Below, piece by piece: positions 2,667-51,971 of a stretch of 64,000 bases of DNA. The translations under genes were made by a program, and so were the position numbers. Position 1 is the stretch's first letter; each line of letters opens with the position of its first letter. The stretch comes from Clostridia bacterium (GTDB lineage Bacteria; Bacillota; Clostridia; Oscillospirales; CAG-272): positions 6,183-70,182 of the forward strand of contig JAFQOX010000017.1 in NCBI GenBank assembly GCA_017412045.1, read 5' to 3'. The notes beneath the pieces were generated by a model. The model worked only from the letters and a program-made list of their open reading frames with translations. It was not told where the DNA came from and did no database searches.

Positions 2667-2952
2667 TATTACGATCATTTTTATAGGAAAAAGGCACAAT
2701 CGGCTATACCGGGTGTCTTTTTCCTATTCTTTTTTCCTTGATTTTTCATGAGATCATGAAAAAATGAGAATGGGAAAAAATTCTTTTCATCTTCTGAATC
2801 GGTAAATTTTTTATGTATGCGCAATCAAAAACGAAAGCTTTATTAAAAAACTGAAAATAAATCAAAAACCCTGTATCATTTTTCCTCTCATTTGAGAGTA
2901 ACAGTATAGACAGGATGCTTGCCTAACAAAATTTGACGGTACATTTCCTTCG

Positions 2953-2977
2953 TGATATCATCCATTGGATGATATCA
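2953..2977. promoter_or_regulatory. Perfect 12+12 bp palindrome TGATATCATCCA-T-TGGATGATATCA about 34 nt upstream of the sigma factor start codon
   Basis: Read directly from the sequence. A TTGACG -35-like hexamer sits ~17 nt upstream (about 2931). Confidence 0.5.
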
Positions 2978-3010
2978 TTTCGTGAATGAATGTGATAAAG
3001 GAGTGTGTAA

Positions 3011-3575
3011 GATGTCGCCATTGTGTTTGGTGTTGATTGATGACGAATATGACAGGATCAATTTTAAGAAAATATACGAGCGGTATGCGGATGATGTGTT
3101 TAAGCGGATATATAAATTGGTAAACAACCGTCAGGATGCAGAGGATATTATGCAGGAGACATGGCTTGCCGTTGCCGAAAATATACAATTTTACCGTTCC
3201 AAGGACGACGCATCTATGCGGGCGTATATATTGAGGATCGCAAAAAACAGAGCGATTACCTTTTATCATACGAGCGAGAAGGAAAAAAGCCGTCGGTGTG
3301 ACACCGAGCTGATGGATTTGGCTGAAAGCAGTGATGACGAAACGCTTCTTTTTGATATGTGTAACAAAATGGACGTCGCCGTGATTTGTGAATGTATCCG
3401 TTCTCTTGATGAAATTTACAGCGACGTTTTGAATTATTATTATTTACACGATCATACCGTAAAAGAAATTGCAAAATTATTCAAATTGAAGGAAGTGACC
3501 GTGAGGGCGAGATTGGCACGCGGCCGCAAAAAATTGTTACAATTGCTCGAAGGGAGGAATCTGAATGAACGATAA
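3011..3575 (+). CDS. Sigma-70 family RNA polymerase sigma factor, ECF-like (regions 2 and 4 only)
   Basis: Region 2: RQDAEDIMQETWLAVAENIQFY...YILRIAKNRAITFYH. Region 4 HTH: YYLHDHTVKEIAKLFKLKEVTVRARLARGRKKL. AAAGGAG RBS lies 7 nt before ATG 3011. The track ORF starts at GTG 2982. Confidence 0.85.
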
Positions 3576-4065
3576 AGAATTATCGGGAAAAAGCCGCTTG
3601 AAGGAAGCTCTGCAATTCAGCGATCAAGCGTACGTTGACAAGCATCCGCCGATGGAGACCGATGTCCGATATTCAAAAAAGCATTTGAAATATATGGCGC
3701 GCCTGACGAGGCAAACGGTATCTCCTATTGGAATTTACGCAAGAAAATACGTTGCGGCGCTGATGGCGGCAGTATTTCTTCTCGTTTGCGGTTCCGTCAC
3801 GATATCCGCAGTCAGAGCGCCTTTAACCGAATTTTTGGAAACGGTTTCTTCCTCCATTTTTAAGGATCCGAATCCCTCTCAATCCGATGATCCGCATACA
3901 GAGCACGATTTTTCCGTTTTGGCAACGGATGATCCCAACAAGCATTATTACCGCTGTGCAGATGAGCGTTGCAAAGAAAGATCGAAAGAGGAATTTCATA
4001 CTTACGTTCCCAATGAAGAAAAACGGCGGTTGGAGTGTTCGGTTTGCGGCAGAGTCGCCAATTGA
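3565..4065 (+). CDS. Putative anti-sigma factor: single-pass membrane protein with a Cys/His-rich C-terminal ectodomain
   Basis: Overlaps the sigma gene by 11 nt (translational coupling). Has one TM (YVAALMAAVFLLVCGSVTISAV). The C-terminus reads KHYYRCADERCKERSKEEFHTYVPNEEKRRLECSVCGRV. The call rests on position and topology only. Confidence 0.55.
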   Translation: MNDKELSGKSRLKEALQFSDQAYVDKHPPMETDVRYSKKHLKYMARLTRQTVSPIGIYARKYVAALMAAVFLLVCGSVTISAVRAPLTEFLETVSSSIFKDPNPSQSDDPHTEHDFSVLATDDPNKHYYRCADERCKERSKEEFHTYVPNEEKRRLECSVCGRVAN

Positions 4066-4087
4066 CGTTGAAAAAGGAGAAGATTTT

Positions 4088-5635
4088 ATGATGAAAAAAA
4101 TCATCGCCGGCATTCTTACAATCATGATGATGCTGTCTTTTACTGCGTGCAACACGGATCCTATTTCCGAAGATCCCATGACGTATGATACCCAAGACAA
4201 AACGAGCCGTACGGAAGCCTCCGCTTCCACAGACAGAAGCCCGTCAACAACCAATCCGTCCGCGCAACCGATTTGGGAAAAGCCTGTCGCGCCGAGCGGG
4301 TGGGAATATCCCGAAATTGATCTTTCCGAGGGCAAATATACGCCGTCGGCGCTCGATCCCGCTGCGCTTGCAAGGAAGCTCGGCTATAAGGACGGAACTT
4401 ATGAATACGAATATTTCCGCGCGCTTTCGGGTCTCTCCTTTTACGCGCGGATCGCAAGCAACAAGGTTTCTTCCGCAACGAAAAATACTGCGGTCAGTTC
4501 TCTTGCAAAGGGATTTTTTGAAGTGATCAGCCGTGATACCTTCCTTGCTCCTTATGAAGATATTCTTTATCATACGTTTTCTCTTTTAAAGAAGTCGGAC
4601 TTTACGCTTTTTGCCGATAACGAAGCGCTGATTGCAGAGTATCAAAATACGCTTTCCTATCAATGGGATAAGCCCACGGAAATTTGGTATACGGCGGCAC
4701 TTTCGTTCACGGATATGGATACGAAGCTGACGGAATACGCGCTTGCGCTGCTAACGCTAAAAGAAAAATATCCCGATTACGCGGGTGAATTCACACTTTC
4801 CGAGGAAGCGATCTCCCAAGCGCAGGCAATCGTTGATTCCTGTAAGGCCGTTGCCGACAGCCGAGATGAGCAATGGGCAGCATGGGAGGAATATTTCAAG
4901 GAATCGACTCCAAAGGTGACGGTAACGTCGGAGATCATTCCCGAAAAAGATGCTGTGAAGCTTATTTTTACGAGCGACCACCCGCTTTCCGTTCAGATCG
5001 ACCCGAAATATATCGCGGATTTCAAGGGCGAGGTGACGCAAAACGGAAACGCTGTCGGTTATCACTATGAACCGATGGAATCTCCCGTCGTTTGCTACGT
5101 TCCGATCGGTCTTTTTTATTCCACGCACGGGGAATTTTCGGTGACGAAATATGTAACCAATGATTTGACGCACACTTATAAAGAAACGGTCACGGCTTCT
5201 GCCGATTTCCATTCGTGCTTTTCCGATGAAGCGATTACGGTTTCCGATCCGTTTTTGGATGCCGTTTTAAAGGCAGAATTCGGCGGCTCCTACAACGAGA
5301 GAGCGCTTTCACGAATCAGAAGCATTTCGGTTTCCTATCGACGAACAGATCGGGAAAACGTGGGCGGAGCGGCATTCAAAAAAGAGCCCTCCGTTCTGAT
5401 CACATATTACGACAAAACGCTCGGCGACGGCGGATCCTCCTATCATACGTATTCCGATTATTATACGGTGGGTTGGACGGGGGACTTTCCCCCGTGCGTC
5501 TGGGAGGATATGGAATATTTTCCGCTTCTGGAAAGCGTTTCGTTCCACCAAGACGGCTCATCCAAAATTCCGCTTCCCGAGGAATATCTCGACCGTATTC
5601 TCATAAAGGAATATACGGCTGACGATTTTTCATGA
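4088..5635 (+). CDS. Lipoprotein of unknown function (~515 aa)
   Basis: MMKKIIAGILTIMMMLSFTAC is a signal peptide plus lipobox (LSFTAC), followed by a Ser/Thr/Pro/Asp-rich linker. GGAGAAG RBS precedes ATG 4088. The track ORF 3887.. overlaps the anti-sigma gene, so the later start is preferred. Confidence 0.7.
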   Translation: MMKKIIAGILTIMMMLSFTACNTDPISEDPMTYDTQDKTSRTEASASTDRSPSTTNPSAQPIWEKPVAPSGWEYPEIDLSEGKYTPSALDPAALARKLGYKDGTYEYEYFRALSGLSFYARIASNKVSSATKNTAVSSLAKGFFEVISRDTFLAPYEDILYHTFSLLKKSDFTLFADNEALIAEYQNTLSYQWDKPTEIWYTAALSFTDMDTKLTEYALALLTLKEKYPDYAGEFTLSEEAISQAQAIVDSCKAVADSRDEQWAAWEEYFKESTPKVTVTSEIIPEKDAVKLIFTSDHPLSVQIDPKYIADFKGEVTQNGNAVGYHYEPMESPVVCYVPIGLFYSTHGEFSVTKYVTNDLTHTYKETVTASADFHSCFSDEAITVSDPFLDAVLKAEFGGSYNERALSRIRSISVSYRRTDRENVGGAAFKKEPSVLITYYDKTLGDGGSSYHTYSDYYTVGWTGDFPPCVWEDMEYFPLLESVSFHQDGSSKIPLPEEYLDRILIKEYTADDFS

Positions 5636-5653
5636 TCCCGCTGAGAGGTGCTT

Positions 5654-6151
5654 ATGAAAAAACTTCTTATCTTGTTTTGTCTTTTTTCCATACTTCTTTG
5701 TTCGTGCGGCAAGGCGGACGAGGTTCTCGACCTCTCCGCCTTTCATGAAAATTTCCGCACGGAGCACGGTGCGCTTTTTGATAACGCAAGCTGTGAACAC
5801 GATCTGCGGTATCGGAATATGCCCGATCCGCTTTCGGATGACGACGTGACCGTTTATCATGAGGTTTCATGCTATTACGGCAATTGCGATTTTGAAACGC
5901 ATTTGGAACCGCATACGGTCTCTTATTCAAACATTCAAGTTCAAAACGGAAATCCCAAATTGAAAGAAAACGGCTGTCTGTATCACCGTTTGGTCGTTCA
6001 ATGCGAATATTGCCGCGTTTATCCGTATTTTTATATCTACGTTTTATGCCCGAACCAAGATACTGCTTGTAAGGGCGGAAAAGAGTGCCTTGCCGGTGCG
6101 GATTGGGAGGAGATCTTATGCGATACGCCTTACGTAATATCGTACGATTAA
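5654..6151 (+). CDS. Cys/His-rich small lipoprotein, copy 1
   Basis: MKKLLILFCLFSILLCSCG is a signal peptide plus lipobox. The mature part has >=12 Cys. It is a paralog of 9459..9977, with shared blocks CEH.L.Y, YH..SC..G.CD.E.H.EPH, KENG.LYH, C.EC, DW.EI...TPY.I. Confidence 0.7.
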   Translation: MKKLLILFCLFSILLCSCGKADEVLDLSAFHENFRTEHGALFDNASCEHDLRYRNMPDPLSDDDVTVYHEVSCYYGNCDFETHLEPHTVSYSNIQVQNGNPKLKENGCLYHRLVVQCEYCRVYPYFYIYVLCPNQDTACKGGKECLAGADWEEILCDTPYVISYD

Positions 6152-7593
6152 AAACGCGGAGCTTTCTGAGCTTTGCCATCGCGTTTGCCATTCTTTTTCT
6201 TTCCATGCTCGGCGTTTTGACCGTTCGGCTCTGCGAGGATAACCGAGAACGCTTTTTCGGTCCGCTCGACGGCGCCTATCACGTAACGGACAGTGCCTAT
6301 ACGCCCTTCCTTTCCTATGAGGCGGCGGAATATCTGGAGAAATATTCCGAAGCGATCACGAAGACCTCCGCCGTGATGGAGCGGACGGTTTCTTTTCCCG
6401 ATATGGAGTATATCGGGAAAAACGATTATGCGAGAGAAACCTTCGGCTGGGAAAGGGCTTACCTTCCCATTGGAACGGCACAAACGGCGTATCACGAGGG
6501 CTTTCTTCTTTGCGCGGTGACCTCTATGGATATTTTGAAGGAGGTCTACGGCGGTGATCTCGTCATGACGGAAGGCACGGCGATCAGTGAAAAAAACAAC
6601 GCCGACGGTGCAAACAAGATCGTGATTTCCTTCTCGGTCGCAGAGAAAAACGGATTGAAGCTTGGAGACCGCGTGCATCTCGATCCGTTTTCCGTTTTCA
6701 GTGAAGAAGAAGGCGCAGTTTCCGCTTACCTTGGATTCTCCGAAGAGTATTCGGCGTATGAATACATCGTCGGCGGTATTTATGAAAACCGTGAGAATAA
6801 CGGAGTTTCCGCTTCGCTTCCGAGTGAGATCAATGAAAATAAGGTTTATATCCCCATCTCGACTCTGACGGAAATGGCGAGAGATCCCTATCTTCTTGAT
6901 TTTGGCATTCGTAACGAAACGGGGCTTTCCGAGGAACCGCCGTCCGTGATTCCCGACAGACTCTATTTTCAGGTAAACAATACGGGAAGCGTAAAAATTT
7001 TAGAGAAAAAAATAAATGAGATCGGTTTTTCGGAGGCGCTTCTGCTTTCGCCCTATATATCCGATGCGGCTTCTTCACCATCCGCAAGACTTTCCGAGAT
7101 CGTTTCCTTGCTTCTTGTCGGTGTGATCGGAATGGGCTTTGCCGTTTTTGCGCTTACGGTGTTTTTTAATATGAAAGCAAGGAACAGAGAGCTTGCCGTG
7201 CTGACGGCACTCGGACAAAAGCGAAGCTGTGTCGTTCTCTCGTTTTTTGCTGAAATCTGTATTCTGACCTTTTTAGCCTTCCTGTGCGGTATTTTTCTTT
7301 TGATGGGAGCGGTCGTGCTTTTGGCTGTTCCGATCTCAAATTACTTGTATGAAGCTGAATTTTCGGCAAAGATTACGCATGAAAGCGCGGATCTCTTTTT
7401 GATCGGAAGCGGAGCGCAATCTGCCGCAACTGAAAAATTGGAGGATTTCGATTTTCTTTTTACTCGATATATCATACCGAGCACCGCGCTTTCCGCATTG
7501 GCGGCGGTCTTGATCCTGCTTCTTATTTTCGGTATCGTAGCTTTTTATGTCCGTAAGATCAACGCATTGTCGGGAGTGGGAGGAAAAGAATGA
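6118..7593 (+). CDS. ABC transporter permease, MacB/FtsX type, 4 TM with large extracytoplasmic domain, copy 1
   Basis: MRYALRNIVRLKTRSFLSFAIAFAILFL (typical FtsX-family N-terminus plus TM1), ~300 aa ectodomain, then TM2-loop-TM3-loop-TM4 (IVSLLLVGVIGMGFAVFALTVFFNMKARNRELAVLTALG...ALAAVLILLLIFGIVAFYV). Overlaps both the upstream and downstream genes. Confidence 0.85.
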   Translation: MRYALRNIVRLKTRSFLSFAIAFAILFLSMLGVLTVRLCEDNRERFFGPLDGAYHVTDSAYTPFLSYEAAEYLEKYSEAITKTSAVMERTVSFPDMEYIGKNDYARETFGWERAYLPIGTAQTAYHEGFLLCAVTSMDILKEVYGGDLVMTEGTAISEKNNADGANKIVISFSVAEKNGLKLGDRVHLDPFSVFSEEEGAVSAYLGFSEEYSAYEYIVGGIYENRENNGVSASLPSEINENKVYIPISTLTEMARDPYLLDFGIRNETGLSEEPPSVIPDRLYFQVNNTGSVKILEKKINEIGFSEALLLSPYISDAASSPSARLSEIVSLLLVGVIGMGFAVFALTVFFNMKARNRELAVLTALGQKRSCVVLSFFAEICILTFLAFLCGIFLLMGAVVLLAVPISNYLYEAEFSAKITHESADLFLIGSGAQSAATEKLEDFDFLFTRYIIPSTALSALAAVLILLLIFGIVAFYVRKINALSGVGGKE

Positions 7594-9350
7594 CGGTTTT
7601 AAAATTTGCTTTTCGGAATTTGATTCGCCTGCCTTGGCGAACTCTTTTATATTTTGCCATCGTATTTTTCATCGTCCTATCCGTCTCGGCTTCTCTTTTC
7701 GTATACGTTGCGTGTGAAAACGCGGGAGAGGCGCTGGATGAAAATTATGTGTTCGTTGCTTCGCTCGTTCCGAGGAAAAAGGATTCCCTCGCCCTTCGGG
7801 ATATCGGATACTGCGCAGACGGAACGGAAATTCTTTCTTTTCACGTGTCCATGTCGGAAAATAACGGCGTGATTCTCGGCGGCGCGTATATGCAAAGGCT
7901 TCCCGAAAAAACGGAGATCGCAAACGCGCCTTCGGCATGGGTGGACGAAATCGGCGCAAGGCTCGTTGCCGTGGAAAATCTGCATCTCGTCCCCTCCTTC
8001 TTTTCGGGAGAATGTACGTTGCAAAGCGGCACGGGTATTACCGAAAAAGGCTATGCGGGCGAACGTGCCGAGCTTGTGATCCCGTGGCGGCTTGCAGAGA
8101 AATACGGTGTTTCCGTCGGTGATACGCTCATCAGACGGTATTACCGCGACGACTACGAAACGTATATTTATTTGGAAAGCGAGATCGTCGGTATTTATAA
8201 AACGAGCGCGATTTCGCCCGATGAAAACGATGATCCCGTATATATTCCTCTTGCCGTTGCGGAATTGGATTATGCCACGCTCATTTCGGAGCGGCAAACG
8301 CCAACCTCCGAGCTGATCATCGAACGCGCGGATTTCGTTTTGAAGGATAGAAACGCATTTGAACCGCTCGTTTTGCAGGCTGGGGCAAACGGACTGGATT
8401 TCCGTAGAGCCGATCTCGTATTCAATAACGGCGCTTACGATACGCTTTCGGGCGAGCTTCGGAGCATTACGTCGATTGCTATGCTCGTTCTGTTCGGTGT
8501 TTTGGCTGTCGGTGTAAGCGTTCTCGTCTTTTTTACGCTCTATCTCTGCCATGCAAGAGACCGCGAAAAAACGTTGCTTTCTGCACTCGGGATGAGCCGC
8601 GGAGGCATCCGCGCCATGCTCACCCTTGAATTGCTCACAGTTGCTGTTTGTGCTTTTCTGATCGGAGGTGTGGCAGGTTATTTTACGGCAGATGCCGTTT
8701 GCGGCTACGTGAACGATTCGGTATTGACCGATGAAGAAATTTCAAGCAAAATCGAAGGCACGGGGCGCGGAAGTCAAACGGATATCACGGCACCCCTTGA
8801 GCAAAACATCAAAATAGAGATTTCCGTGCGCTCCGTTCACGTTTGTGCATCCGGACTCACGGTCAACGAAACGAAAATGCCGAGAGAGGACGAAATCGGT
8901 GTCAGCAGGCATTTGTATTATCGCATCGGCAACGATCTGACGGATATGATGCAGGGAAAGGCTCGCGTGCCGACCTCGGTCGTGGGCATTACGGATATGA
9001 GCGCCGTCAAAACGACCGTTTGGGACGAGTCCTTTTCCGGTATCCGTGTTTTTGTCAGCGAGGATTTTAATATGGGAGCAATGGAGAGTAACCGTATTTT
9101 TCTGACACCTTACGATCAAAACGGGTACGTATCGCTCAAAAAGGATTCTTCTTCGCTCGGCGATGCAAGCTTGCCGAAAAATACGTCTGTGCGAATCGTG
9201 GGAGTCTATGAAGAAAACGAATATTGCTCGGGAAACGATCTGCTCGTCTGCATGGAGGATTATCACAGGCTTTATTCCGAATTTTCCATCACGGACGAAA
9301 GCTTTTTCTTTGAGCGCATCGGCACGGTTTATACAAAAAATGAGCCGTAA
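7590..9350 (+). CDS. FtsX-family permease-like protein, atypical: TM1, ectodomain, TM2, TM3, then ~215 aa hydrophilic C-terminal domain and no TM4, copy 1
   Basis: MTVLKFAFRNLIRLPWRTLLYFAIVFFIVLSV..., FtsX core ITSIAMLVLFGVLAVGVSVLVFFTLYLCHARDREKTLLSALGMSRGGIRAMLTLELLTVAVCAFLIGGVAGYF. No further hydrophobic span is present up to the C-terminus (...VGVYEENEYCSGNDLLVCMEDYHRLYSEF...). ATGA overlap with the upstream gene. Confidence 0.75.
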   Translation: MTVLKFAFRNLIRLPWRTLLYFAIVFFIVLSVSASLFVYVACENAGEALDENYVFVASLVPRKKDSLALRDIGYCADGTEILSFHVSMSENNGVILGGAYMQRLPEKTEIANAPSAWVDEIGARLVAVENLHLVPSFFSGECTLQSGTGITEKGYAGERAELVIPWRLAEKYGVSVGDTLIRRYYRDDYETYIYLESEIVGIYKTSAISPDENDDPVYIPLAVAELDYATLISERQTPTSELIIERADFVLKDRNAFEPLVLQAGANGLDFRRADLVFNNGAYDTLSGELRSITSIAMLVLFGVLAVGVSVLVFFTLYLCHARDREKTLLSALGMSRGGIRAMLTLELLTVAVCAFLIGGVAGYFTADAVCGYVNDSVLTDEEISSKIEGTGRGSQTDITAPLEQNIKIEISVRSVHVCASGLTVNETKMPREDEIGVSRHLYYRIGNDLTDMMQGKARVPTSVVGITDMSAVKTTVWDESFSGIRVFVSEDFNMGAMESNRIFLTPYDQNGYVSLKKDSSSLGDASLPKNTSVRIVGVYEENEYCSGNDLLVCMEDYHRLYSEFSITDESFFFERIGTVYTKNEP

Positions 9351-9382
9351 GACGAAAGCTTCGACAAAGTTTCAAAAATCTC

Positions 9383-9411
9383 TTGACAAGAGCGCCCTCG
9401 GCACTTATAAT
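9383..9411 (+). promoter_or_regulatory. Consensus sigma-A type promoter (TTGACA-17 nt-TATAAT) between the two cassette copies
   Basis: tctTTGACAagagcgccctcggcactTATAATataac, read directly from the only sizeable intergenic gap of the locus (9351-9458). Confidence 0.6.
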
Positions 9412-9458
9412 ATAACTGTACTATTGATGATAATACAGTTGGGCGAAAAGGAGATTTT

Positions 9459-9977
9459 ATGAAAAGATATATTCTGCTTTGCTTGCTTGCGTTTTGCGTT
9501 TTGCTGTTTTCCTCTTGTCACGCGGTTTCCGAAACGCATTTGGATCCATCCCATTACGGTGAGGATTTCAGAATCAAAAACGAAATGCTTTTTCCGAACA
9601 CGGAATGTGAGCATTCCTTGGTTTATACGCCGACGGACGGTACGGAGGCGGATATGTATCACAAGACCTCCTGCAAATGGGGCGGATGTGATTACGAGGC
9701 GCACGGAGAACCGCACGTATTTCTGTTTAAGCAGGGGTATTTGCCGAGCGCGAGAGCGCATTATAAGGAAAACGGATATCTGTATCATTCCTTCCGGATG
9801 GCTTGCGAGGAATGTCACGGAGCGGTCACGCTCCACGTTCTTTGCCGTACGCAGAATGCCGAATGCGGCGCGGGCGAAGGGGCGATCCACGCGCCTGCCG
9901 TATGCTTTGCAGGCTGTGATTGGCAAGAAATCTTTCGGGGAACGCCGTATCGGATCACGGTGCGCTCCGATGCGTGA
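9459..9977 (+). CDS. Cys/His-rich small lipoprotein, copy 2
   Basis: MKRYILLCLLAFCVLLFSSC is a signal peptide plus lipobox. Paralog of 5654..6151. AAGGAG RBS is present. Confidence 0.7.
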   Translation: MKRYILLCLLAFCVLLFSSCHAVSETHLDPSHYGEDFRIKNEMLFPNTECEHSLVYTPTDGTEADMYHKTSCKWGGCDYEAHGEPHVFLFKQGYLPSARAHYKENGYLYHSFRMACEECHGAVTLHVLCRTQNAECGAGEGAIHAPAVCFAGCDWQEIFRGTPYRITVRSDA

Positions 9978-9994
9978 CGGAAGGCGGTGGCGCT

Positions 9995-11467
9995 TTGTAT
10001 TACGCGATTCGAAATATAGGCAGACAGAAGGCAAAAAGCCTTCTTGTTCTTCTGATGGCGTTTGCCGTCCTGTTTCTTTCTCAATTCGGATTTTTTATGC
10101 GCTGTATATCCGAACACGTGAGAGAACGCTTTTGGGGACCGCTTGACGGCTCCGTTCACGTGACGGATGACGATCTTGAGGCGTATCTTACCTACGATGC
10201 CGCCGTTACGCTTGCGAACGATGCGGAGGTGATCACCCGTCTCTCTGCCGTGAAAACCTATACGGGCTTTTTCCGTAACGCCGTTTACGTGGGCTACGGT
10301 AGCTATCAGCGTCCGCAATATGCGGGAGAAACACCGACCGCGGACAGAAAAAGCAATTATCTTACGGGTGTTTGCGTGAAAGCCGTGACCTCCATGGAGA
10401 TTCTTGAGGAGACGTACGGCGGTGTTCTGGCGGTGGTGCAAGGCTCGGCGATCACCGACGAAGACACGGATCTGCGGAAAAACAAGATCGTTGTCTCGGA
10501 AAAATTCGCTGAAGCCAACAACCTGCGGATTGGAGATTCTCTCGTATTGGATACCTTGTCCCTTTATCAGACAGAGGCGGAAGCGGTACGCTTCGGTATG
10601 ACGGATCTGTATGACAAAAATAAATTTACGTATGCATATACCGTGGGCGGTATCTACCGTTTGCATACGGACAATGCGGCGGCAGCTTCTGTTCCGTGGG
10701 AATTGTATGACAATATCGTTTACGTGCCAATGACGACGGCGGAGAATATCTCCGTTTCCGAAGGCGTACGGACGATGTTTGAGAGCGAGGATGTTTTCGC
10801 CTTGAGGACCAATCCCGTTTTGGTTCCCGATGCGCTGTATTTTCATCTTTCGGATATCGGCTGTGCGCAAGCGCTTGCCGAAGAAATGAACGGAATCGGT
10901 TTTTCCGAGCGAATCAGGCTGACGCCGTACGTTTCCGATCTTTCGTCCTCTCCTTCTGCGCGGCTTTCGGAGGTCGTATCGGGGACGCTTGTCGGTGTGA
11001 TCGCGGCGGGTTTTGCCGTATTGCTGTTGACCGCGCTTTTGAATATGAGGGCAAGACGGCGCGAATTTGCCGCCCTGATCGCCATGGGTAAAAAAAGAGA
11101 GTCCGTTGCTTTGTCCTACGCTCTTGAGCTTGGGCTTCTGATCGTCTCGGCGTTTCTTTTGTCCGCCGTAGCGATGACGGTCATCGCCTATCTGTGCGCG
11201 GCACCACTCTCCCGGTATTTGTACGCCGCAGAGGAAGCGGCTTTGTTTCACACCGAAAGCGCGGATCACTATCTTTTTGGCGATTGGAGCGATCCGCTTG
11301 CCGTGCAGGTGCAAGCGTCCATTCCCGCGCTTTTCCGTGAATATATGATGCCGAACATCGTATTTACGGGAGCGGTGACGGCAGTTTTGATGCTGTTGCT
11401 TTGCGGTATGATTTCAGTCTATGTAAAAAACGTACACCCAATGTACGATGCGGGGGGGAAGGAGTAA
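9995..11467 (+). CDS. ABC transporter permease, MacB/FtsX type, 4 TM, copy 2
   Basis: Paralog of 6118..7593 (WGPLDGSVHVTDDD / FGPLDGAYHVTDSA; SPSARLSEVVS / SPSARLSEIVS; NMRARRREFAALIAMG). A TTG start at ~9995 (LYYAIRNIGRQKAK) preceded by GGAAGG aligns with the copy 1 N-terminus. The track ORF begins at 9920 inside the upstream gene. Confidence 0.8.
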   Translation: MYYAIRNIGRQKAKSLLVLLMAFAVLFLSQFGFFMRCISEHVRERFWGPLDGSVHVTDDDLEAYLTYDAAVTLANDAEVITRLSAVKTYTGFFRNAVYVGYGSYQRPQYAGETPTADRKSNYLTGVCVKAVTSMEILEETYGGVLAVVQGSAITDEDTDLRKNKIVVSEKFAEANNLRIGDSLVLDTLSLYQTEAEAVRFGMTDLYDKNKFTYAYTVGGIYRLHTDNAAAASVPWELYDNIVYVPMTTAENISVSEGVRTMFESEDVFALRTNPVLVPDALYFHLSDIGCAQALAEEMNGIGFSERIRLTPYVSDLSSSPSARLSEVVSGTLVGVIAAGFAVLLLTALLNMRARRREFAALIAMGKKRESVALSYALELGLLIVSAFLLSAVAMTVIAYLCAAPLSRYLYAAEEAALFHTESADHYLFGDWSDPLAVQVQASIPALFREYMMPNIVFTGAVTAVLMLLLCGMISVYVKNVHPMYDAGGKE

Positions 11468-11468
11468 T

Positions 11469-13256
11469 ATGACGGTCATCAGAATGGCTTTTCGGAATCT
11501 CGTCCGTTTTCCGAAAAGAACGGTTTTATACGGACTTACGGTTTTTCTTCTCGTCTTTTCCATCACCGTCTCTCTTTTCGTATACCGTGCGTGCGGTCTG
11601 GCGGAAAGCACGCTGGAGGAGCATTATGTTTTCGTCGCTTCTCTGGTCAAAAGAACACAAGGACGCAATATTCCGCTTTCTGAGATCTTCAAATGCACGC
11701 CTTATAAAAAATTGTTGGCATTCAACGTCACCGTTTCGGAGGGAGAGGGCGTATTTCCCGCAGGCTCTGCGCTGACGGAGCTTCCTTCTGCCGATAGGGA
11801 CGAAAATCCGACGGACGTTTGGCTTGAAGGACCGGGCTGTCCCATATACGGCGTAGAAAATCTGGGGCTCGTTTATCCGTTTTTCTCGGGAGAATGTCAT
11901 ATCACGCAGGGAACGGCGCTGACGGAAAAGGGATACTGCGGCGAAGCCGACGAGACGGTGATCCCCTGGTGGATGGCGGAGCGCTACGGACTCAAGGTCG
12001 GCGATACCGTGAACCGCCGTTATCTCCGACAGACGGGAGAATTTGCCTATATTTATATCCCGACGGAGATCGTGGGTATTTATGCGACGTCCTCTCCCTC
12101 GCCGAATATTGAAAATTATCCTGCGTATATTCCGCTTGCCCTGGCGGAGACGGACTACGGCAAAATCTTGCCGAGCGCAACGGATGCCGGGGATATCCGC
12201 GTGGAAAGAGCCGATTTCGTGCTGAAAAACAGGGAGGATTTTGCGGATTTCGTCGCGTTCGCGCAAGCGCAGGGCTTGGATTTCACGTCTGCCAATCTTG
12301 TTTTCAATAACAGCACCTATGACGTGCTGTGCGCCGAGCTTCAAAATATCGGTCATATTGCGCTCCTCGTATTTGCCGCCGCTACTCTCGCAGGTGTCGG
12401 CACGCTGATTTTTCTGACGGTCTATCTTTGCAGAGCGAGAGAAAAAGAAACGGCGATTCTTCGCGCTCTGGGAATGAAAAAAACGAAGATCTACGCTTTG
12501 CGTGCGTTGGAATTTGCTTTGCTCATCGCCGTTTTTTCTTCGGTAGGATTTTTGGGAGGTCGTTTTGCGGCAGGGGCGGTTTGCGATTTCGTCAACGGTA
12601 CGGTTCTGGCGCGTGCCTCCGCATCCGAGGAAATACAAGATCTGAATGCATCGGAAAGTTTTGTCATTACCATGCCGCTCGAAAAAGATTTCAACATGAA
12701 AATATCCCTTTCTCCGTCTCAAATTGCCGATGCCGCCGTTGCGGTGCATTCGTTGCCGAAGCTTTCCGTAAACGAGCTTGGGATCTCGCGCCATCCATTT
12801 TACTTGTTTATGACGGACTCGGAGAATCTGACCGCTACGCCCGAAGCGATGAAGGCGTTTGAAACGAGGGAAAAGCTCCGGATGGATATCGTCGGCGTAA
12901 CGGATCTTTCCGTTTTTGAACTGACGGAAACGAAGGAATTTCCCGAAAATTTCGTCAGGATCTACGTGAATGAAACTTCTCCGTATGCCAATGAAGAGAG
13001 CCTGTTTTTGTCGGCGGACGATTTCGGAGATTACGTTTCGGTTCTTCTGTATGAAGCGGGGATCTCGCCGGACGGAGGCAGATTGGGACAAGTGAAAAGA
13101 TATTATATTGCCGGTACTTATCAGGAAAATGAATATTGCTCGGGCGATGACATCCTTGTTTCCATGGAGGACTATCATAAAATATATTCCGATATATCCG
13201 TCACGGATCACATCAATCATTTTCAGCGCATCGGCGCAGTTTGGGAAAAGGAGTGA
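11469..13256 (+). CDS. FtsX-family permease-like protein, atypical (3 TM plus C-terminal ectodomain), copy 2
   Basis: MTVIRMAFRNLVRFPKRTVLYGLTVFLLVF... Paralog of 7590..9350 with the same architecture and the conserved C-terminal block GTYQENEYCSGDDILVSMEDYHKIYS. The start follows the upstream stop by 1 nt. Confidence 0.75.
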   Translation: MTVIRMAFRNLVRFPKRTVLYGLTVFLLVFSITVSLFVYRACGLAESTLEEHYVFVASLVKRTQGRNIPLSEIFKCTPYKKLLAFNVTVSEGEGVFPAGSALTELPSADRDENPTDVWLEGPGCPIYGVENLGLVYPFFSGECHITQGTALTEKGYCGEADETVIPWWMAERYGLKVGDTVNRRYLRQTGEFAYIYIPTEIVGIYATSSPSPNIENYPAYIPLALAETDYGKILPSATDAGDIRVERADFVLKNREDFADFVAFAQAQGLDFTSANLVFNNSTYDVLCAELQNIGHIALLVFAAATLAGVGTLIFLTVYLCRAREKETAILRALGMKKTKIYALRALEFALLIAVFSSVGFLGGRFAAGAVCDFVNGTVLARASASEEIQDLNASESFVITMPLEKDFNMKISLSPSQIADAAVAVHSLPKLSVNELGISRHPFYLFMTDSENLTATPEAMKAFETREKLRMDIVGVTDLSVFELTETKEFPENFVRIYVNETSPYANEESLFLSADDFGDYVSVLLYEAGISPDGGRLGQVKRYYIAGTYQENEYCSGDDILVSMEDYHKIYSDISVTDHINHFQRIGAVWEKE

Positions 13257-13260
13257 AGAT

Positions 13261-13944
13261 ATGGAAACTTTGCATTTGAAAAACGTATCCTACGATTATA
13301 CGACCAAAGCGGGAAAGGTCCACGCTTTGAGGGATGCGACCGCCGTCTTTGAAGCGGGCGCGGTTTACGCGATCGTCGGACGCTCGGGAAGCGGAAAGTC
13401 CACCTTGATGTCCCTCATGGCAGGGCTGGACATCCCCAAAGACGGTGATATTTTTTATCACGGCGAAAATTTGAGAAATATGGATCGCGATAAGTTCCGC
13501 CGCGAGCATATCGGCATGATCTTCCAGAGCTATTACTTGCTCCCCCAGCTGACCGCCGTGGAAAACGTGGAGCTTTCGCTCGAGCTTGCAAAATACAAGG
13601 GAAACAAGCGTGCCCGCGCCGAGGAAATGCTCTCGCTCGTCGGCATCAAAAGGGAGCAATTCAAAAAGCGCAGTACGCAGTTTTCGGGCGGCGAACAGCA
13701 AAGGATCGCCATCGCCCGCGCCATTGCGGCAGATCCCGAGATCATTCTCGCGGATGAACCGACGGGAAACTTGGATAACGATAACAGCATGAACATCGTC
13801 GGGATTCTCGTCGATCTGGCGCATAAATACGATAAATGCGTGATTGTCATTACCCACGCCGCCGAGATTGCGGAAAGAGCAGACGTCGCGCTGAAGATGG
13901 ACGACGGCGTGCTGAAATGTGATTTCGGGAAAGAAATGGTGTAA
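13261..13944 (+). CDS. ABC transporter ATP-binding protein, MacB/LolD-like (227 aa)
   Basis: Walker A GRSGSGKST, Q-loop, signature FSGGEQQRIAIARA, Walker B ILADEPTGNLD, H-loop VIVITHA. It is the only ATPase in the locus. Confidence 0.9.
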   Translation: METLHLKNVSYDYTTKAGKVHALRDATAVFEAGAVYAIVGRSGSGKSTLMSLMAGLDIPKDGDIFYHGENLRNMDRDKFRREHIGMIFQSYYLLPQLTAVENVELSLELAKYKGNKRARAEEMLSLVGIKREQFKKRSTQFSGGEQQRIAIARAIAADPEIILADEPTGNLDNDNSMNIVGILVDLAHKYDKCVIVITHAAEIAERADVALKMDDGVLKCDFGKEMV

Positions 13945-14023
13945 ATGATTGCAAGTCTATTGATTCTCTTTTATGTTTCCGATATAATAAAATTGTATTC
14001 GTAAGACCCACTGTAGGGCACAA

Positions 14024-14054
14024 GTCGGGAAGATTTTCCCGGCTTTTCTTTTTT
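14024..14054 (+). terminator. Rho-independent terminator closing the ABC locus
   Basis: GTCGGGA-agattt-TCCCGGC hairpin followed by TTTTCTTTTTT. Confidence 0.6.
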
Positions 14055-14108
14055 CCCCATTTCTTCCTCGTCAGAACGAAAGGAAAACGGAAGCGCTTTC
14101 AAGGTCGG

Positions 14109-15581: not shown

Positions 15582-17321
15582 ATGACGAAACGAATTCCCA
15601 AAATATCGCTCCGTGCGATGTCGCTTGCCAAGCAATGCGGAATCAGCAGTAAAGATTTGTATTTAATTACGCCGACAGGCGCTGACGGCAGAATCACCGA
15701 AGAGGACGTTTTGCTCGCAGCCAAGGCGAAAATGGATATGGCTTCCGTGGCAGCGCAAAAGCCCGCAGCGGAAAAAGCACCCGTTGCGGAAGAAGTACCT
15801 GTAACGGAAAAAGCGCCCGTTGCAGAAAAAGCACCCGTTGCGGAAGAAGTACCTGTAACGGAAAAAGCGCCCGTTGCAGAAAAAGCACCCGTTGCGGAAG
15901 AAGCGCCCGTGGCGAAAGAAGCGCCCGTGGCAGAAAAAGCACCCGTAGCGGGAGAAGCGCCCGTTGCGGAAGAAGCACCCGTTGCAGAAAAAGCGCCCGT
16001 TGCGGAAGAAGCGCCCGTTGCGGAAGAAGCGCCCGTTGCAGAAAACGCACCCGTAACGGAAGAAGCGCCCGTAGCGGAAGAAGCGTCCGCAGCAGAAGAA
16101 GCGCCCGTAACGGAAGAAGCACCCGTTGCGGAAGAAGTACCCGTTGCAGAAGAAGCGCCCGTAACGGAAGAAGCACCCGTTGCGGAAGAAGTACCCGTTG
16201 CAGAAGAAGCGCCCGTTGCAGAAGAAGCGCCCGTTGCGGAAGAAGTGCCCGTAACGAAAGAAGCGCCCGTTGCGGAAGAAGCGCCCGTTACGGAAGAAGC
16301 ACCCGTAACGGAAGAAGCACCCGTTGCGGAAGAAGTACCCGTTGCAGAAGAAGCACCCGTTGCAGAAGAAGCGCCCGTAGCGGAAGAAGCACCCGTAGCG
16401 GAAGAAGCACCTGTGGCAGAAGAAACTCCCGTAGCGGAAGAAGCCCCCGTGACGGAAGAAGCACCTGTGACAGAAGAAACTCCCGTGGAAGCGCCGGACA
16501 GCGTTGCCATTGAAAAAATCGAGACGGAAAAACAGGAACAAACCGCAATCATTGCCAAACCCGTGATGAACGAAGAAACGATCGGCGATCAGAGCGCAGA
16601 AGGAGAGATCCCGAAGCATGAGACGGTTCATTCCTTTGATTCGGAGGCATACCTTCATACGGACGTCATCATTCCGAGAACGGAAACCGCGCCGGACGGA
16701 ACGCCGATGACGGTCAGTATGTCCTTCGATGCTTCTTCTATCGTGAGATTACATACGATGATCAAGGAGAACGGCGAAGCGATGGGAATTCCTCACGTTA
16801 CGATCAACGATATGATTCTCTTTGCGGCGGCAAAGCTTCTGAAGAAAAACAAAGCGCTGAACGCGCATTTTCTCGGAGACAAGATCCGTTATTTCGACGG
16901 CGTGCATCTCGGATTCGCCGTAGATACCGATCACGGTATGGAGCTTCCCGTGGTATTCGATGCGGATAAGCTTTCCCTCTACGCGCTCACGCAGGTTACG
17001 GATGCTTTGATCAGAGGCGCAAGAGCGGGCAAAATCGCTTCCGGCAAAACGAAGCCCTGCGCTTCCTTCACGGTATCCAATCTCGGCACGCTCGGCGTGG
17101 AATATTTCATGCCGACGCTGAAGGCACCGCAGACCGGAATCCTCGGCGTTTGCGCGTTGCAGAAGAGAGTGAAGGAGGTTGGCGGAAAGGACGTATTCTA
17201 CTCCTGCATCCCGCTCTCCCTGACCTTCGATCCCCGCGCGCTGGATACCACGAGCGCCGCGAAATTCCTGCGCGATCTTTGCGTATCGCTGGAAAATTTT
17301 GAATTGTTGCTGTTGAAATAA
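15582..17321 (+). CDS. 2-oxoacid dehydrogenase E2 (dihydrolipoamide acyltransferase)-like protein with no lipoyl domain, a long Pro/Ala/Glu repeat linker and a degenerate catalytic motif
   Basis: N-terminal E3/E1-binding-like segment ([29 protein letters not shown]), ~240 aa of [AV]PV[AT]E[EK] repeats, and a C-terminal catalytic-domain pattern ([39 protein letters not shown]). Confidence 0.75.
15760..16490 (+). repeat. About 40 tandem copies of an 18-bp coding repeat (GAAGAAGCNCCCGTTGCG-like, hexapeptide APVAEE) with 54-bp higher-order units
   Basis: Read directly. For example, the 54-mer gaagaagtacctgtaacggaaaaagcgcccgttgcagaaaaagcacccgttgcg occurs twice back to back near 15788-15895. Confidence 0.9.
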
Positions 17322-17416
17322 AAGCACGGCACGTTGTAAAAGATGAAATCAAGGCGTCCCGTTTGAAAGGAAAATGCTTTTTGAACGGGGCGCTGACAGA
17401 AAGGCACGGTTATAAC

Positions 17417-19219
17417 ATGGCACAAGAAAGAAAAGATATTGAAGCGCGCTATAAATGGGACCTTACCGTTATTTATCCGAGCGAAACGGAATTTTACGCG
17501 GATTATGACAAGGCGGAAAAAGCGATTGAAGCTTTTTCCAAATATCAGGACGTTATGTGCAACAGCGCGAAGGATCTTTATAATACGTTGAAGAGTCTGA
17601 CGGACATCGAAGCGTTGATCGAAAAGCTTTTCCATTACGCTTCCCTGAACTTTTCCGTGGAGACCTCCAACAATTCCTTCCAATCCCTGAACGCCAAGGT
17701 GCGCAATCTGATGATCAAGGCAGGCACCGCGACGTGGTTCGTCGAGCCCTACGTGCTCCGCATTCCCGAGGAAACGGTGACGGAATGGCTGACGGACTAT
17801 AAGAGACTCGCGACCTTCCGCCGTATGATCGAGAAGATCCTGCGCAGAAAGGACCATACGCTTTCCGACGAATGTGAAAAGCTGATGGCGAAAATGGAGA
17901 ACTGCATCGGCGCGCCGAACGAGGTCCGCAATATTTTCGTCAATTCCGATATGCGCTTCGGTAAGATCAAGGATGAAAACGGCGTTTCCGTCGAGCTGAC
18001 GGATGCAAGCTACGCAAGCTATCTGATGAGCGGCGACCGTAAGGTCCGTAAGTCGGCGTTCACCACGCTCTACAAAACCTACGAGCAGTTCGGCAATACC
18101 TTCGGCACGATGATGAACGCAATGGTGAAGGAAAACGCTACGCTTGCCAAGGTGCAGAATTTTGAGGATGCGCTGACGGCCTCCACCTTCAAGGACGAGG
18201 TCACGCCCGAAATTTATAACAATCTGATCCATTCCGTCAATTGCTCGCTTTCCGTTCTTTACGATTATTACGCCTTGAAAAAGGAAGTGCTCGGACTCAA
18301 GGAGCTGCATCTGTATGATATTTACGCTTCTCTCGTCGGAGAATTGGATCGGAAATATCCTTATGAGGAAGCGGTGGCGGAGGTTCTGGAGACCGTCAAG
18401 GTTTACGGTCAGGAATATTACGAAACCCTGCGCGAGGGTCTGACGGAAAAGGGCTGGGTGGACGTATATCCCTGCCGGGGCAAGAGGGGCGGCGCCTTCA
18501 GCTCCGGCGGTCCTGCTACGGAGCCCTATATTCTGATGAACTATACGGGCACCTTTGACAACGTGGCTACGCTTGCGCACGAGGCGGGACATTCTATGCA
18601 TACTTGGTTCTCCACGCATTACAACAAGCCGTATAACGCCTCCTATACCATCTTCGTCGCCGAGGTTGCTTCCACGGTCAACGAGCTCCTGCTCATGCAC
18701 CGCAAGCTGAAGGCATCCGAAAACGATGACGAAAAGCTCTATATTCTCGATCAGATCATGGAAACCTATAAGGGCACGCTCTACCGTCAGACGATGTTCG
18801 CGGAATTTGAGAAGGATATTCACACGCTGTGCGAGCAGGGCGAGCCTTTGACCGCCGAGCTTCTGAATACGAAATACTACGAGCTCGTTTGCCGCTATTT
18901 CGGAAACGACGTCGTTTGCGATCCGCAGATCGCTTTCGAATGGATGAGAATCCCCCATTTCTATATGAATTTCTACGTTTACAAATACGCGACCTGCATT
19001 TCCGCCGCTTCCGCGATCGTGAAGCGTATTGAAACCGAAGGCGCGTCCTACGTCAAGAAATATATCGACTTTTTGAAATGCGGCGGCTCCAGATCTCCTC
19101 TCGAAAGCCTCCGCGTGGCGGGTATTGATATGACGGATCCTCATATCGTATCGGATGCCATCGAGGATTTCTCTGCCGCTATCGAGCAGTTCAGAGAGAT
19201 TTATCATAATAAAAAATAA
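17417..19219 (+). CDS. pepF: Oligoendopeptidase F (M3B family)
   Basis: MAQERKDIEARYKWDLT N-terminus, zinc motif HEAGHSMH, length ~600 aa. The track ORF starts upstream at 17363. Confidence 0.9.
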   Translation: MAQERKDIEARYKWDLTVIYPSETEFYADYDKAEKAIEAFSKYQDVMCNSAKDLYNTLKSLTDIEALIEKLFHYASLNFSVETSNNSFQSLNAKVRNLMIKAGTATWFVEPYVLRIPEETVTEWLTDYKRLATFRRMIEKILRRKDHTLSDECEKLMAKMENCIGAPNEVRNIFVNSDMRFGKIKDENGVSVELTDASYASYLMSGDRKVRKSAFTTLYKTYEQFGNTFGTMMNAMVKENATLAKVQNFEDALTASTFKDEVTPEIYNNLIHSVNCSLSVLYDYYALKKEVLGLKELHLYDIYASLVGELDRKYPYEEAVAEVLETVKVYGQEYYETLREGLTEKGWVDVYPCRGKRGGAFSSGGPATEPYILMNYTGTFDNVATLAHEAGHSMHTWFSTHYNKPYNASYTIFVAEVASTVNELLLMHRKLKASENDDEKLYILDQIMETYKGTLYRQTMFAEFEKDIHTLCEQGEPLTAELLNTKYYELVCRYFGNDVVCDPQIAFEWMRIPHFYMNFYVYKYATCISAASAIVKRIETEGASYVKKYIDFLKCGGSRSPLESLRVAGIDMTDPHIVSDAIEDFSAAIEQFREIYHNKK

Positions 19220-19246
19220 ACGGAAAAGCATTCTTTTTCGGACGGA

Positions 19247-20991: not shown

Positions 20992-21291
20992 ATGGATAAG
21001 CAATGCTGTTCTCACAAAACGAAAGCCCGTACGGACGACGAATATAAAAAGCTGATTCACCGTCTGAACCGTATCGAGGGACAGATCCGCGGAATCCGCG
21101 GTATGGTGGAAAACGATGCGTACTGTACGGATATTCTGATCCAGGTCAGCGCGGTCAACGCCGCTCTGAACGCGTTCAATAAGGAATTGTTGGCAAATCA
21201 TATCCGCACCTGCGTGACGGACGATATCCGGAACGGGAAGGACGAGGTCGTGGACGAATTGGTCAACACCCTGCAAAAATTGATGAAATGA
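20992..21291 (+). CDS. csoR: CsoR/RcnR-family metal-sensing transcriptional repressor
   Basis: LIHRLNRIEGQIRGIRGMVENDAYCTDILIQVSAVNAALNAF is the classic DUF156 pattern with the Cys/His ligand set. It lies directly upstream of copA. Confidence 0.9.
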   Translation: MDKQCCSHKTKARTDDEYKKLIHRLNRIEGQIRGIRGMVENDAYCTDILIQVSAVNAALNAFNKELLANHIRTCVTDDIRNGKDEVVDELVNTLQKLMK

Positions 21292-21308
21292 AAGGCACGG
21301 TATGACAA

Positions 21309-32689: not shown

Positions 32690-32716
32690 TGAAAAAATGA
32701 AAGAAAGGTGTATCAC

Positions 32717-37819: not shown

Positions 37820-37896
37820 GAAAGCCCGGATGCATATACAAGGATTGACGTTTTAACGTGTTTTTGAATGAACCCAGAAAGGAAAGGTCATTATAT

Positions 37897-39348: not shown

Positions 39349-39399
39349 TACGGGTAACGTAGCGGCGCATACACTTTTACTCAGAAGGAGATCAAAACA

Positions 39400-51815: not shown

Positions 51816-51889
51816 GCGGGTGTAGTTCAATGGTAGAACTCCAGCCTTCCAAGCTGGTCGCGTGGGTTCGATTCCCATCATCCGCTCCA
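51816..51889 (+). tRNA. tRNA-Gly (anticodon UCC), CCA encoded
   Basis: Acceptor GCGGGTG/CATCCGC, anticodon arm CCAGC-CTTCCAA-GCTGG, T arm GTGGGTTCGATTCCCAT. Confidence 0.9.
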
Positions 51890-51966: not shown

Positions 51967-51971
51967 GTTAT

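Follow-up and report, generated by a model that had tools for sequence, protein, structure and literature searches.

Type VII ABC systems and the window locus

ATP-binding cassette (ABC) transporters of type VII, among them MacB, LolCDE, FtsEX, BceAB and YbbAP, serve as models of how mechanical work is done outside the cell by ATP hydrolysis within it. MacB-type and BceAB-type transporters provide peptide resistance, LanI lipoproteins together with ABC transporters provide immunity, and the Gram-positive MacB-type permeases Spr0694-0695 and YtrEF act as homodimers of one permease type. Published type VII units have either four transmembrane (TM) helices, described as 'typical of this protein family', or ten in the single-chain permeases YbbP and BceB, and YbbP has two periplasmic core domains (PCDs) in one polypeptide (PMC12646458). 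Here we describe a locus in a 64-kb stretch of Clostridia DNA (contig JAFQOX010000017.1, positions 6,183 to 70,182; the whole stretch analyzed is called the window) in which one ABC ATPase gene is preceded by two copies of a gene triad, encoding a small Cys/His-rich lipoprotein (sl), a 4-TM permease (A) and a 3-TM permease paralog (B). The layout of B, with three TM helices and a second ectodomain, was not found in a curated family, and no description of it was found in the literature searched.

The locus consists of ten intact ORFs on the plus strand, from 3012 to 13944, with neighbors that overlap or nearly abut: an extracytoplasmic function (ECF) sigma factor, a putative anti-sigma factor, a 515-residue lipoprotein (lip515), sl1, A1, B1, sl2, A2, B2 and the ATPase. 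Start contexts are good and no ORF is broken. The overlaps are 11 nt for sigma and anti-sigma, 34 nt for sl1 and A1 and 4 nt for A1 and B1, and the only sizeable gap inside the locus is that between B1 and sl2 (108 nt, 9351-9458). An earlier note on this DNA had counted eleven genes and started the sigma factor gene at 3011, which is out of frame, the ATG being at 3012. It had placed the remaining ORFs correctly, and the terminator that it reported after the ATPase gene corresponds to an intrinsic-terminator-like hairpin with a 10-bp stem (14022-14045), which together with its T run spans 14022-14055 on the plus strand, 3' of 13944. The locus clearly belongs, by its sequence features, to the type VII (MacB/FtsX) superfamily: an FtsX domain, an ectodomain between TM1 and TM2 and an ATPase of the LolD/FtsE/MacB class are all present. 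We propose that it encodes heterodimeric type VII mechanotransducers with sl as a partner that would serve in envelope defense, and we give this reading as a whole a probability of about 0.4. Its architectural part is considerably more secure; sequences and models make it quite likely that sl-A-B and an ATPase dimer form a LolCDE-like heterodimeric mechanotransducer, in which B would couple to the ATPase through its TM2-TM3 loop and sl would be a co-produced partner.

The locus did not classify as LolCDE, FtsEX, MacAB, BceAB or the lactococcin-972 system. It resembles LolCDE in having two diverged FtsX/MacB-type permeases per single ATPase gene, PCDs on stalk helices and genetically linked lipoproteins, and in Foldseek the N-terminal part of B, like its C-terminal domain, matches LolCDE best. 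It is unlike LolCDE in that LolE has four TM helices and one PCD, whereas B has three TM helices and two PCD-like domains; moreover, the ATPase falls below the LolD equivalog cut-off, and the genomes of the host, an uncultured lineage of Clostridia, carry several copies each. Pfam and NCBIfam recognized nothing like LolA or LolB among the locus proteins. The earlier comparison with LolC/LolE/LolD logic is borne out to the extent that A and B are distant paralogs (24 % identity over ~400 aa) that lie side by side, with a single ATPase gene each time, wherever the gene order is complete among the 22 related loci, and that the loci have two paralogous permease genes per ATPase gene, one of them with three TM helices.

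The Gram-positive MacB-type systems for resistance to peptides or antibiotics (Streptococcus pneumoniae Spr0694-0695, PDB 5xu1; Bacillus subtilis YtrEF, PDB 9o9x) likewise combine a 4-TM PCD permease with a separate ATPase in a similar envelope-stress context, and B matches both structures, but they have no 3-TM partner, second PCD or sl-type lipoprotein; the MacA-like adaptor of the S. pneumoniae system, Spr0693, has no counterpart in the window locus. Unlike in MacAB-TolC, the ATPase is a separate gene not fused to the permease, and there is no HlyD-family match in the locus. The 10-TM single-chain permeases of YbbAP and BceAB also break the rule of four helices per half, and B matches 9ge6 and 8g3a structurally, but these chains keep both full 4-TM units plus a 2-TM linker, whereas the second PCD of B follows TM3 and ends the protein, the second 4-TM unit being a separate gene, A. 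BceAB-BceRS has its ectodomain between TM7 and TM8 of the 10-TM permease, in contrast to the 4 + 3 helices seen here, and the locus lacks both a histidine kinase and a response regulator. FtsEX differs in that the FtsE score is not reached and that the locus holds no domain of a hydrolase or coiled-coil partner of the EnvC, PcsB, CwlO or RipC type. Systems of LanI with LanFEG and the lactococcin-972 ABC immunity system resemble the locus in that an ABC transporter is encoded together with a small lipoprotein and a regulator, and the lactococcin-972 model is the second best of the NCBIfam models for the ATPase. LanFEG permeases are of a different ABC class, however, TIGR03608 scores below its cut-off, and the bacteriocin-associated 7-TM family gave no match to A or B (E <= 0.1). 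The earlier opinion that the locus is neither BceAB-like nor FtsEX is confirmed by the numbers of TM helices, by the lack of a two-component system and by the sub-threshold FtsE score. The gene order, which had not been recognized as a characterized system, remains so here: no curated family for such a gene set reached its cut-off, full-text searches of the literature found no description of such a system, and homologs are named in the databases only 'ABC transporter permease' or 'hypothetical protein'.

Permease B has three TM helices and two predicted PCD-like ectodomains

B1 (7590-9350) and B2 (11469-13256) match the FtsX profile PF02687 with 39.1 and 30.4 bits (cut-off 25.5), over profile positions 2-73 and 3-73 of 120, respectively. 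The matched part comprises TM2, the cytoplasmic coupling loop and TM3, and the motif LLxALGM is retained in the loop. Each protein has three TM helices, with about 220 residues following the FtsX match; the four TM helices per unit found in A1 and A2 are not found in B1 or B2. An AlphaFold2 model of B1, built from an alignment of 23 family sequences of which 57 columns are invariant, had a predicted local distance difference test score (pLDDT) of 84 and a predicted TM-score (pTM) of 0.77. In the model, a TM1 helix (residues 15-52) is followed by an alpha/beta domain, TM2 (281-322) and a TM3 that is a single 54-residue helix (337-390). After residue 390 the chain forms a beta-rich domain that extends to the C-terminus, and a further helix of TM length is absent. 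As modeled, the helix 337-390 must project well past the membrane. The charge distribution and the topology of the family suggest that the tail after TM3 is extracytoplasmic.

When the N-terminal ~390 residues of B1 were compared with the PDB using Foldseek, the matches were LolE and LolC in LolCDE, MacB, Spr0694-0695, YbbP and YtrF, with E values of 1e-9 to 1e-5; the N-terminal PCD was assigned on this basis, LolE, LolC and MacB being matched at E 1e-9. The C-terminal domain (residues ~400-586) was also searched alone, and its top 33 matches were all type VII ABC permeases or isolated ectodomains of them. For the best 27, probabilities were 0.84-1.00 and E values 1e-3 to 5e-2, with 136-161 aligned columns; LolC, LolE or MacB accounted for 26 of them. 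A profile search of PDB sequences with this domain gave only matches to LolC at E ~1-2. The possibility that the domain is a sequence duplicate of B's own PCD was considered and rejected, the hhalign probability being 1.4 %; the link between the two is structural only. According to the model, then, B is TM1-PCD-TM2-loop-TM3-stalk-PCD', and a pair of A and B would hold seven TM helices and three PCDs. The earlier note had called B a truncated FtsX-like protein. The loss of TM4 is upheld by the three TM helices and the partial FtsX match, but TM4 appears to have been replaced by a second PCD-like ectodomain, so that truncation is an incomplete description.

Permease A and the ATPase

Permeases A1 (6118-7593) and A2 (9995-11467, with a TTG start) have the conventional four TM helices with a PCD between TM1 and TM2, and an unusually long loop of ~55 residues between TM3 and TM4. 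Both match the full FtsX profile (30.2 and 35.1 bits). For the MacB_PCD profile, with a cut-off of 27 bits, A2 scores 29.5 and A1, at 25.2, is just below; of the profile check that had been proposed for the four membrane proteins, FtsX was thus found in all four and MacB_PCD in A2, but A1 stayed under the threshold. The only match of A1 among PDB sequences was 5xu1_M (E 0.02). A1 has the loop motif LTALGQ, which is related to the LLxALGM of B.

The ATPase gene (13261-13944; 227 aa) is the sole one of its class in the window. Its product matches ABC_tran with 118.8 bits and has intact ABC motifs. The best NCBIfam models were LolD, lactococcin-972 ABC, FtsE, DevA and MacB, all under their equivalog cut-offs: LolD TIGR02211 scored 187.8 bits against 307.75 and PRK11629 177.5 against 360, the lactococcin-972 bacteriocin model TIGR03608 181.6 against 254.85, and FtsE TIGR02673 174.8 against 264.85. 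ATPase paralogs within a genome are 82-86 % identical in the ruminant metagenome-assembled genomes (MAGs) and 73-74 % identical in two others, and the permeases of related loci are mostly 40-50 % identical to A and B of the window (tblastn). This combination of a conserved ATPase and divergent permeases fits an interchangeable motor, and both A/B pairs of the window may use the one ATPase.

The lipoproteins

The genes sl1 (5654-6151; 165 aa) and sl2 (9459-9977; 172 aa) encode small Cys/His-rich lipoproteins with the lipoboxes LLCSC and LFSSC, and lip515 (4088-5635) has the lipobox LSFTAC. A lipobox is present in all 20 sl sequences. Invariant in the sl family are 8 Cys and 4 His residues, which in mature sl1 are C29, H31, H51, C55, C60, H69, H93, C99, C102, C114, C121 and C127. 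These twelve ligands would fit three tetrahedral metal sites, and zinc sites seem likelier than disulfides in the extracytoplasmic space of an anaerobe. A profile search with sl returned only 22 clusters among 5.8 billion, all of them 110-185 aa long and found in MAGs of the same kind. An sl gene is present in every cassette and directly upstream of A in every complete one; the overlap of sl and A suggests co-production, with sl as a partner in the complex. Homologs of lip515, or at least of its C-terminal ~240 residues, were found upstream of sl in 13 of the 20 loci of the genome scan described below and in contig L029, and at the same position contig L027 has a 478-aa lipoprotein with weak similarity only. 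This constancy supports the earlier suggestion that the lipoproteins are candidate partners or substrates. Pfam, NCBIfam and PDB sequences gave no domain match for lip515, sl or the anti-sigma protein.

Two variants of these genes were seen. In one locus (L020, 360-1511) the sl gene alone is in tandem, giving sl-sl-A-B-ATPase, and both signal peptides are identical. In one sample (L004, 1890-3429) two ORFs, 246 and 239 aa long, were called in place of the single 515-aa ORF of lip515 seen in the other samples, which may be a strain frameshift or an assembly error.

A conserved cassette in uncultured gut Clostridia

A genome scan, with each GTDB species represented once, turned up 20 loci. They belong to eleven MAGs of uncultured Clostridia/Eubacteriales, which come from the guts of ruminants and humans, and 6 of the 11 have 2-5 loci each; together with contigs L027 and L029 this made 22 related loci for comparison. 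In all 15 genome-scan loci that span the whole cassette, the genes sl-A-B-ATPase are adjacent and in this order. The remaining five, which are damaged or run off the end of a contig, contain nothing discordant. L027 and L029 have the same order. L029 comes from a human-gut lineage that 177 blocks of the collection contain, and L027 diverges most of all (B 25-29 % and A 30-33 % identity, sl hidden Markov model E 9e-30, ATPase 69 %). As judged from these comparisons, the conserved unit is sl-A-B-ATPase with one or more upstream lipoproteins, and the sigma factor head and the tandem duplication with a shared ATPase are accessory. A neighborhood check had been suggested in the earlier note: sl and the 3-TM B do stay beside A and the ATPase across the complete related cassettes, but the co-occurrence with sigma and anti-sigma genes was found in 7 of the 20 loci and not in the other 13.

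With B1 as the query, a word-indexed search over 5.8 billion protein clusters returned only 76, down to 38 % identity, most of them 575-612 aa long and aligned end-to-end. With a profile of the C-terminal domain, 23 matches were found among 1.84 billion representative proteins, and those that are full-length all have 575-612 aa and carry the domain at the C-terminus. All the matches of sl (among the 5.8 billion clusters) and of B's C-terminal domain (among the 1.84 billion representatives) fall within the one narrow clade.

One locus (L026, 5045-7912) looks degenerate; its sl is 69 aa long and its B lacks residues ~342-522, most of the C-terminal domain, while A and the ATPase are intact. Mobile or defense genes adjoin the cassette in the two additional contigs, namely TnpV in L027 (2397-2783) and type I restriction-modification genes, an IstB-like ATPase and Fic in L029 (1-4972, 19520-20377). 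These neighbors hint that the cassette may move horizontally; the window's flanks are housekeeping genes.

Tandem duplication

The two triads of the window are clear and old paralogs, with BLASTP similarities far beyond chance: 37 % identity for sl1 and sl2 (E 2e-32), 40 % for A1 and A2 (E 2e-116) and 41 % for B1 and B2 from end to end (E 4e-150). At the DNA level only short patches of 65-83 % identity remain between the modules. The duplication is not an assembly artifact, because the junction from B1 into sl2-A2 occurs on five contigs (L001, L002, L003, L005 and L006) from five different sample accessions. An old duplication that is no artifact was also what the earlier note had claimed; of its three shared sequence blocks the third should read ENEYCSG.D.LV.MEDYH rather than begin with EENEY, since B2 has QENEY.

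The closest orthologous locus (L007, 68-76 % identity) has the order sigma-anti-sigma-lip515-sl1-A1-B1-ATPase, with a single module. Permease cassettes resembling module 2 occur elsewhere in related genomes (L019, L020, L024, L025 and L026), each with its own ATPase wherever the contig reaches. Because the ortholog is single-module and the module-2-like cassettes sit elsewhere with ATPases of their own, the arrangement in the window is a lineage-specific fusion of two cassette types that has a single ATPase gene. An independent two-module case was seen in L023 (9185-13873), where the order is sl-A-B-ATPase-sl-A-B and a second ATPase gene does not follow; a frameshift or an assembly error has divided its second A into ORFs 10440-10979 and 11010-11933.

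Sigma factor, anti-sigma factor and promoters

The sigma factor (3012-3575; 187 aa) contains regions 2 and 4 only (Sigma70_r2, 54 bits; Sigma70_r4_2, 46 bits) and scores 79.5 bits with TIGR02937 against a cut-off of 42.9. ECF sigma factors have these two regions only and a co-transcribed membrane anti-sigma factor; here the next, overlapping gene encodes a single-pass membrane protein. This protein (3565-4065; 166 aa) has a short cytoplasmic N-terminus, one TM helix at about residues 57-85 and a small Cys/His-rich C-terminal ectodomain. It has no anti-sigma domain in Pfam or NCBIfam, and we regard it as a putative anti-sigma factor from its position and topology; the equivalent genes in L019 and L023, which also follow sigma, carry DUF4367. 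An ECF sigma factor gene is found upstream in 7 of the 20 genome-scan loci.

The upstream control region (2872-2961, plus strand) combines a motif conserved with L007, TGTATCA-N-GAGTAA...TATAGA (2872-2901), and, 3' to it, a sigma-70-like promoter, TTGACG-17-TATCAT with an extended TG (2933-2961). The motif occurs once in the window, with 0 matches expected, and may be the target of the ECF sigma factor. An attempt to define a regulon from it was abandoned, given the single occurrence in the window and the different -35/-10-like motifs in the sigma-upstream regions of the other loci. The gap between B1 and sl2 contains a perfect match to the sigma-70-type promoter consensus, TTGACA-17-TATAAT (12 of 12 positions; 9383-9411, plus strand), and no terminator was found in this gap. 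We infer from these elements that module 1 lies on the sigma-headed transcript, and that module 2 and the ATPase gene would additionally have a promoter of their own that keeps the ATPase available.

A Cys/His motif, YH-x3-C-x4/8-C-x6/8-H...CxxCG, is common to the anti-sigma ectodomains of the window, L007 and L015 (3565-4065, 5596-6159 and 1572-2162, respectively). It recurs in extra secreted proteins or lipoproteins of L019 (6906-7916), L023 (3870-4637 and 4502-5317), L024 (2177-3106) and L025 (3482-4480), and in a 144-aa secreted protein of L027 (3878-4312). In its fuller form, H...YH-x3-C-x4/8-C-x6/8-H-x-F/Y...C-x2-CG, it is loosely like the first half of sl, and no Pfam family covers it in the anti-sigma and secreted proteins. 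Homology of the anti-sigma ectodomain to sl was rejected (hmmsearch E 0.1 among 2181 ORFs; hhalign probability 3.8 % over 24 columns), so the likeness is at the level of the motif only.

A proposed machine and its alternatives

In the model that we favor, each sl-A-B set would combine with two copies of the ATPase into an asymmetric heterodimeric type VII machine of the MacB/LolCDE kind. A would be the conventional half, with four TM helices and one PCD; B would contribute TM1, a PCD, TM2, the cytoplasmic coupling loop and TM3, continued outside as a stalk helix with the second PCD-like domain. ATP binding and hydrolysis would be transmitted mechanically through the stalk helices to move the three ectodomains at the outer face of the membrane, where they would act together with the Cys/His-rich, probably zinc-stabilized sl; the larger lipoprotein may take part. 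The job of such a machine would be envelope defense, that is, removing or neutralizing an antimicrobial directed at the membrane or cell wall, for example a bacteriocin or peptide, and the several diverged cassettes of a genome would cover different targets. Module 1 would be stress-inducible behind the ECF sigma and anti-sigma factors, module 2 and the ATPase gene would be expressed from their own sigma-70-type promoter, and one ATPase pool would serve both A/B pairs. The pairing of A with B, the place of sl as a subunit, the sharing of the ATPase and the regulation are suggested by gene order, overlaps and promoters, and the defense function is proposed by analogy. Defense is ranked first because of the ECF sigma linkage, the diversification into multiple copies (2-5 cassettes per genome in 6 of 11 MAGs) and the likeness to MacB-type transporters and to lipoprotein-plus-ABC immunity; the lactococcin-972 model, although below its cut-off, is the second best for the ATPase.

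Several observations weigh against this proposal or parts of it. The C-terminal domain of B aligns to PCDs with query-normalized TM-scores of only 0.35-0.41, its isolated model has a pLDDT of 70 (the same residues have ~80-90 in the full-length model), and hhalign detected no sequence signal between it and B's own PCD. Conservation of the N-terminal PCD of B is high and many of its residues are invariant, which disfavors a fast-evolving specificity domain. Zinc binding by sl is deduced from its Cys/His pattern, the 13 of 20 loci without a sigma factor mean that the link to stress is not universal, and the locus was found to contain neither a bacteriocin nor a resistance marker nor a two-component system. 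A more radical variant, which we consider possible but doubtful, is a novel 7-TM, three-ectodomain machine, in which one half would have exchanged TM4 for a second PCD and would depend on a zinc-Cys/His lipoprotein. Instead of drug efflux, it would use ATP to handle surface lipoproteins as a monoderm 'Lol' or would signal directly to the ECF anti-sigma factor, and one interchangeable ATPase would drive a number of specialized A/B pairs.

Among the alternatives, which we rank below envelope defense in the order in which they are taken here, a Lol-like extractor would treat the lipoproteins as cargo, with A, B and the ATPase pulling sl, the ~500-aa lipoprotein or both from the membrane for release or display on the wall. 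That B matches LolE and LolC complexed with lipoprotein best in structure, that the logic is that of the LolCDE heterodimer, that every cassette has its own lipoprotein gene or genes and that LolD models score highest for the ATPase would all suit such a role. Yet the LolD, MacB and FtsE models score alike and all below cut-off, B is about as similar in structure to MacB and Spr0694-0695 as to LolE, nothing resembling LolA or LolB was recognized in the locus, the Clostridia host presumably has no outer membrane, and the overlap of sl and A suggests the fixed stoichiometry typical of subunits; we therefore consider extraction unlikely. Slightly less likely still is an FtsEX-like regulator that transports nothing, the movements of its ectodomains instead switching on an extracytoplasmic effector, lip515 or another surface protein, for remodeling of the wall or surface. 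It would share the principle of mechanotransmission within the same superfamily, three ectodomains would make a large docking platform and a large conserved lipoprotein is encoded upstream in most loci, but the locus proteins gave no match to a hydrolase, LytM, CHAP, amidase or coiled-coil adaptor domain, the FtsE and FtsX equivalog scores were not reached, and 2-5 diverged copies per genome are unlike a housekeeping division system.

The transporter might also report to the anti-sigma factor, as BceAB does with BceS, so that the machine would be primarily an input to the ECF sigma factor and the anti-sigma ectodomain could dock at the site of sl. The sigma and anti-sigma genes directly upstream in seven loci and the Cys/His motif common to sl, the anti-sigma ectodomains and the secreted proteins point this way. 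Most cassettes lack sigma or anti-sigma genes, however, and the similarity in the motif is marginal, so that we think it improbable as the primary role; it is nonetheless compatible with envelope defense and does not exclude it. At the far end of the range is simple decay, with B as a degenerating permease that has lost TM4 and module 2 as a dead remnant that has lost its own ATPase. Damaged relatives do exist, in L026 with its short sl and internal deletion in B and in L023 with its split second A. But the window ORFs are intact, module 2 has a consensus promoter and B keeps its length of 575-612 aa in the 76 clusters and is recognizable in the L027 member at 25-29 % identity; by this end-to-end conservation, decay is essentially excluded.

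If the proposed architecture is correct, a pair with 4 + 3 TM helices would show which helices are dispensable for mechanotransmission and how extra ectodomains are recruited, and the use of nearly identical ATPases by permease pairs that have diverged strongly would be an example of ATPase sharing from nature. The presence of multiple copies in abundant uncultured Clostridia of the rumen and human gut points to an unrecognized envelope function, possibly bacteriocin defense. In practice, the hosts are uncultured and the clade is narrow.

Flanking regions of the window

The window matches a 133-kb metagenome scaffold, and close relatives of its proteins are labeled 'MAG: Clostridia bacterium'. 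No signs of an island were seen in the genes that flank the locus, which are of a housekeeping kind: a gene like that for CoA-disulfide reductase, part of a GMP synthase gene, an E2-like acyltransferase and oligoendopeptidase F, with DnaE, WhiA and MurB farther out. Large minus-strand ORFs without Pfam matches (21198-23705, 32003-33796 and 37891-41775) were dismissed as antisense shadow ORFs on the basis of their composition.

The acyltransferase gene (15582-17321) encodes an E2-type 2-oxoacid dehydrogenase component with E3-binding and catalytic domains, in which Pfam detected no lipoyl domain. Its linker region contains a repeat (15768-16465) of 38.8 copies of an 18-bp unit, which translates into hexapeptides of the AEEAPV type over ~230 residues. 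The oligoendopeptidase F gene (17363-19222) adjoins a gene for a bacterial serpin (19416-20669; 299 bits with Pfam Serpin), whose signal peptide is of the lipoprotein type (LLHASGC). Three tRNA genes are clustered on the plus strand at 51816-52046.

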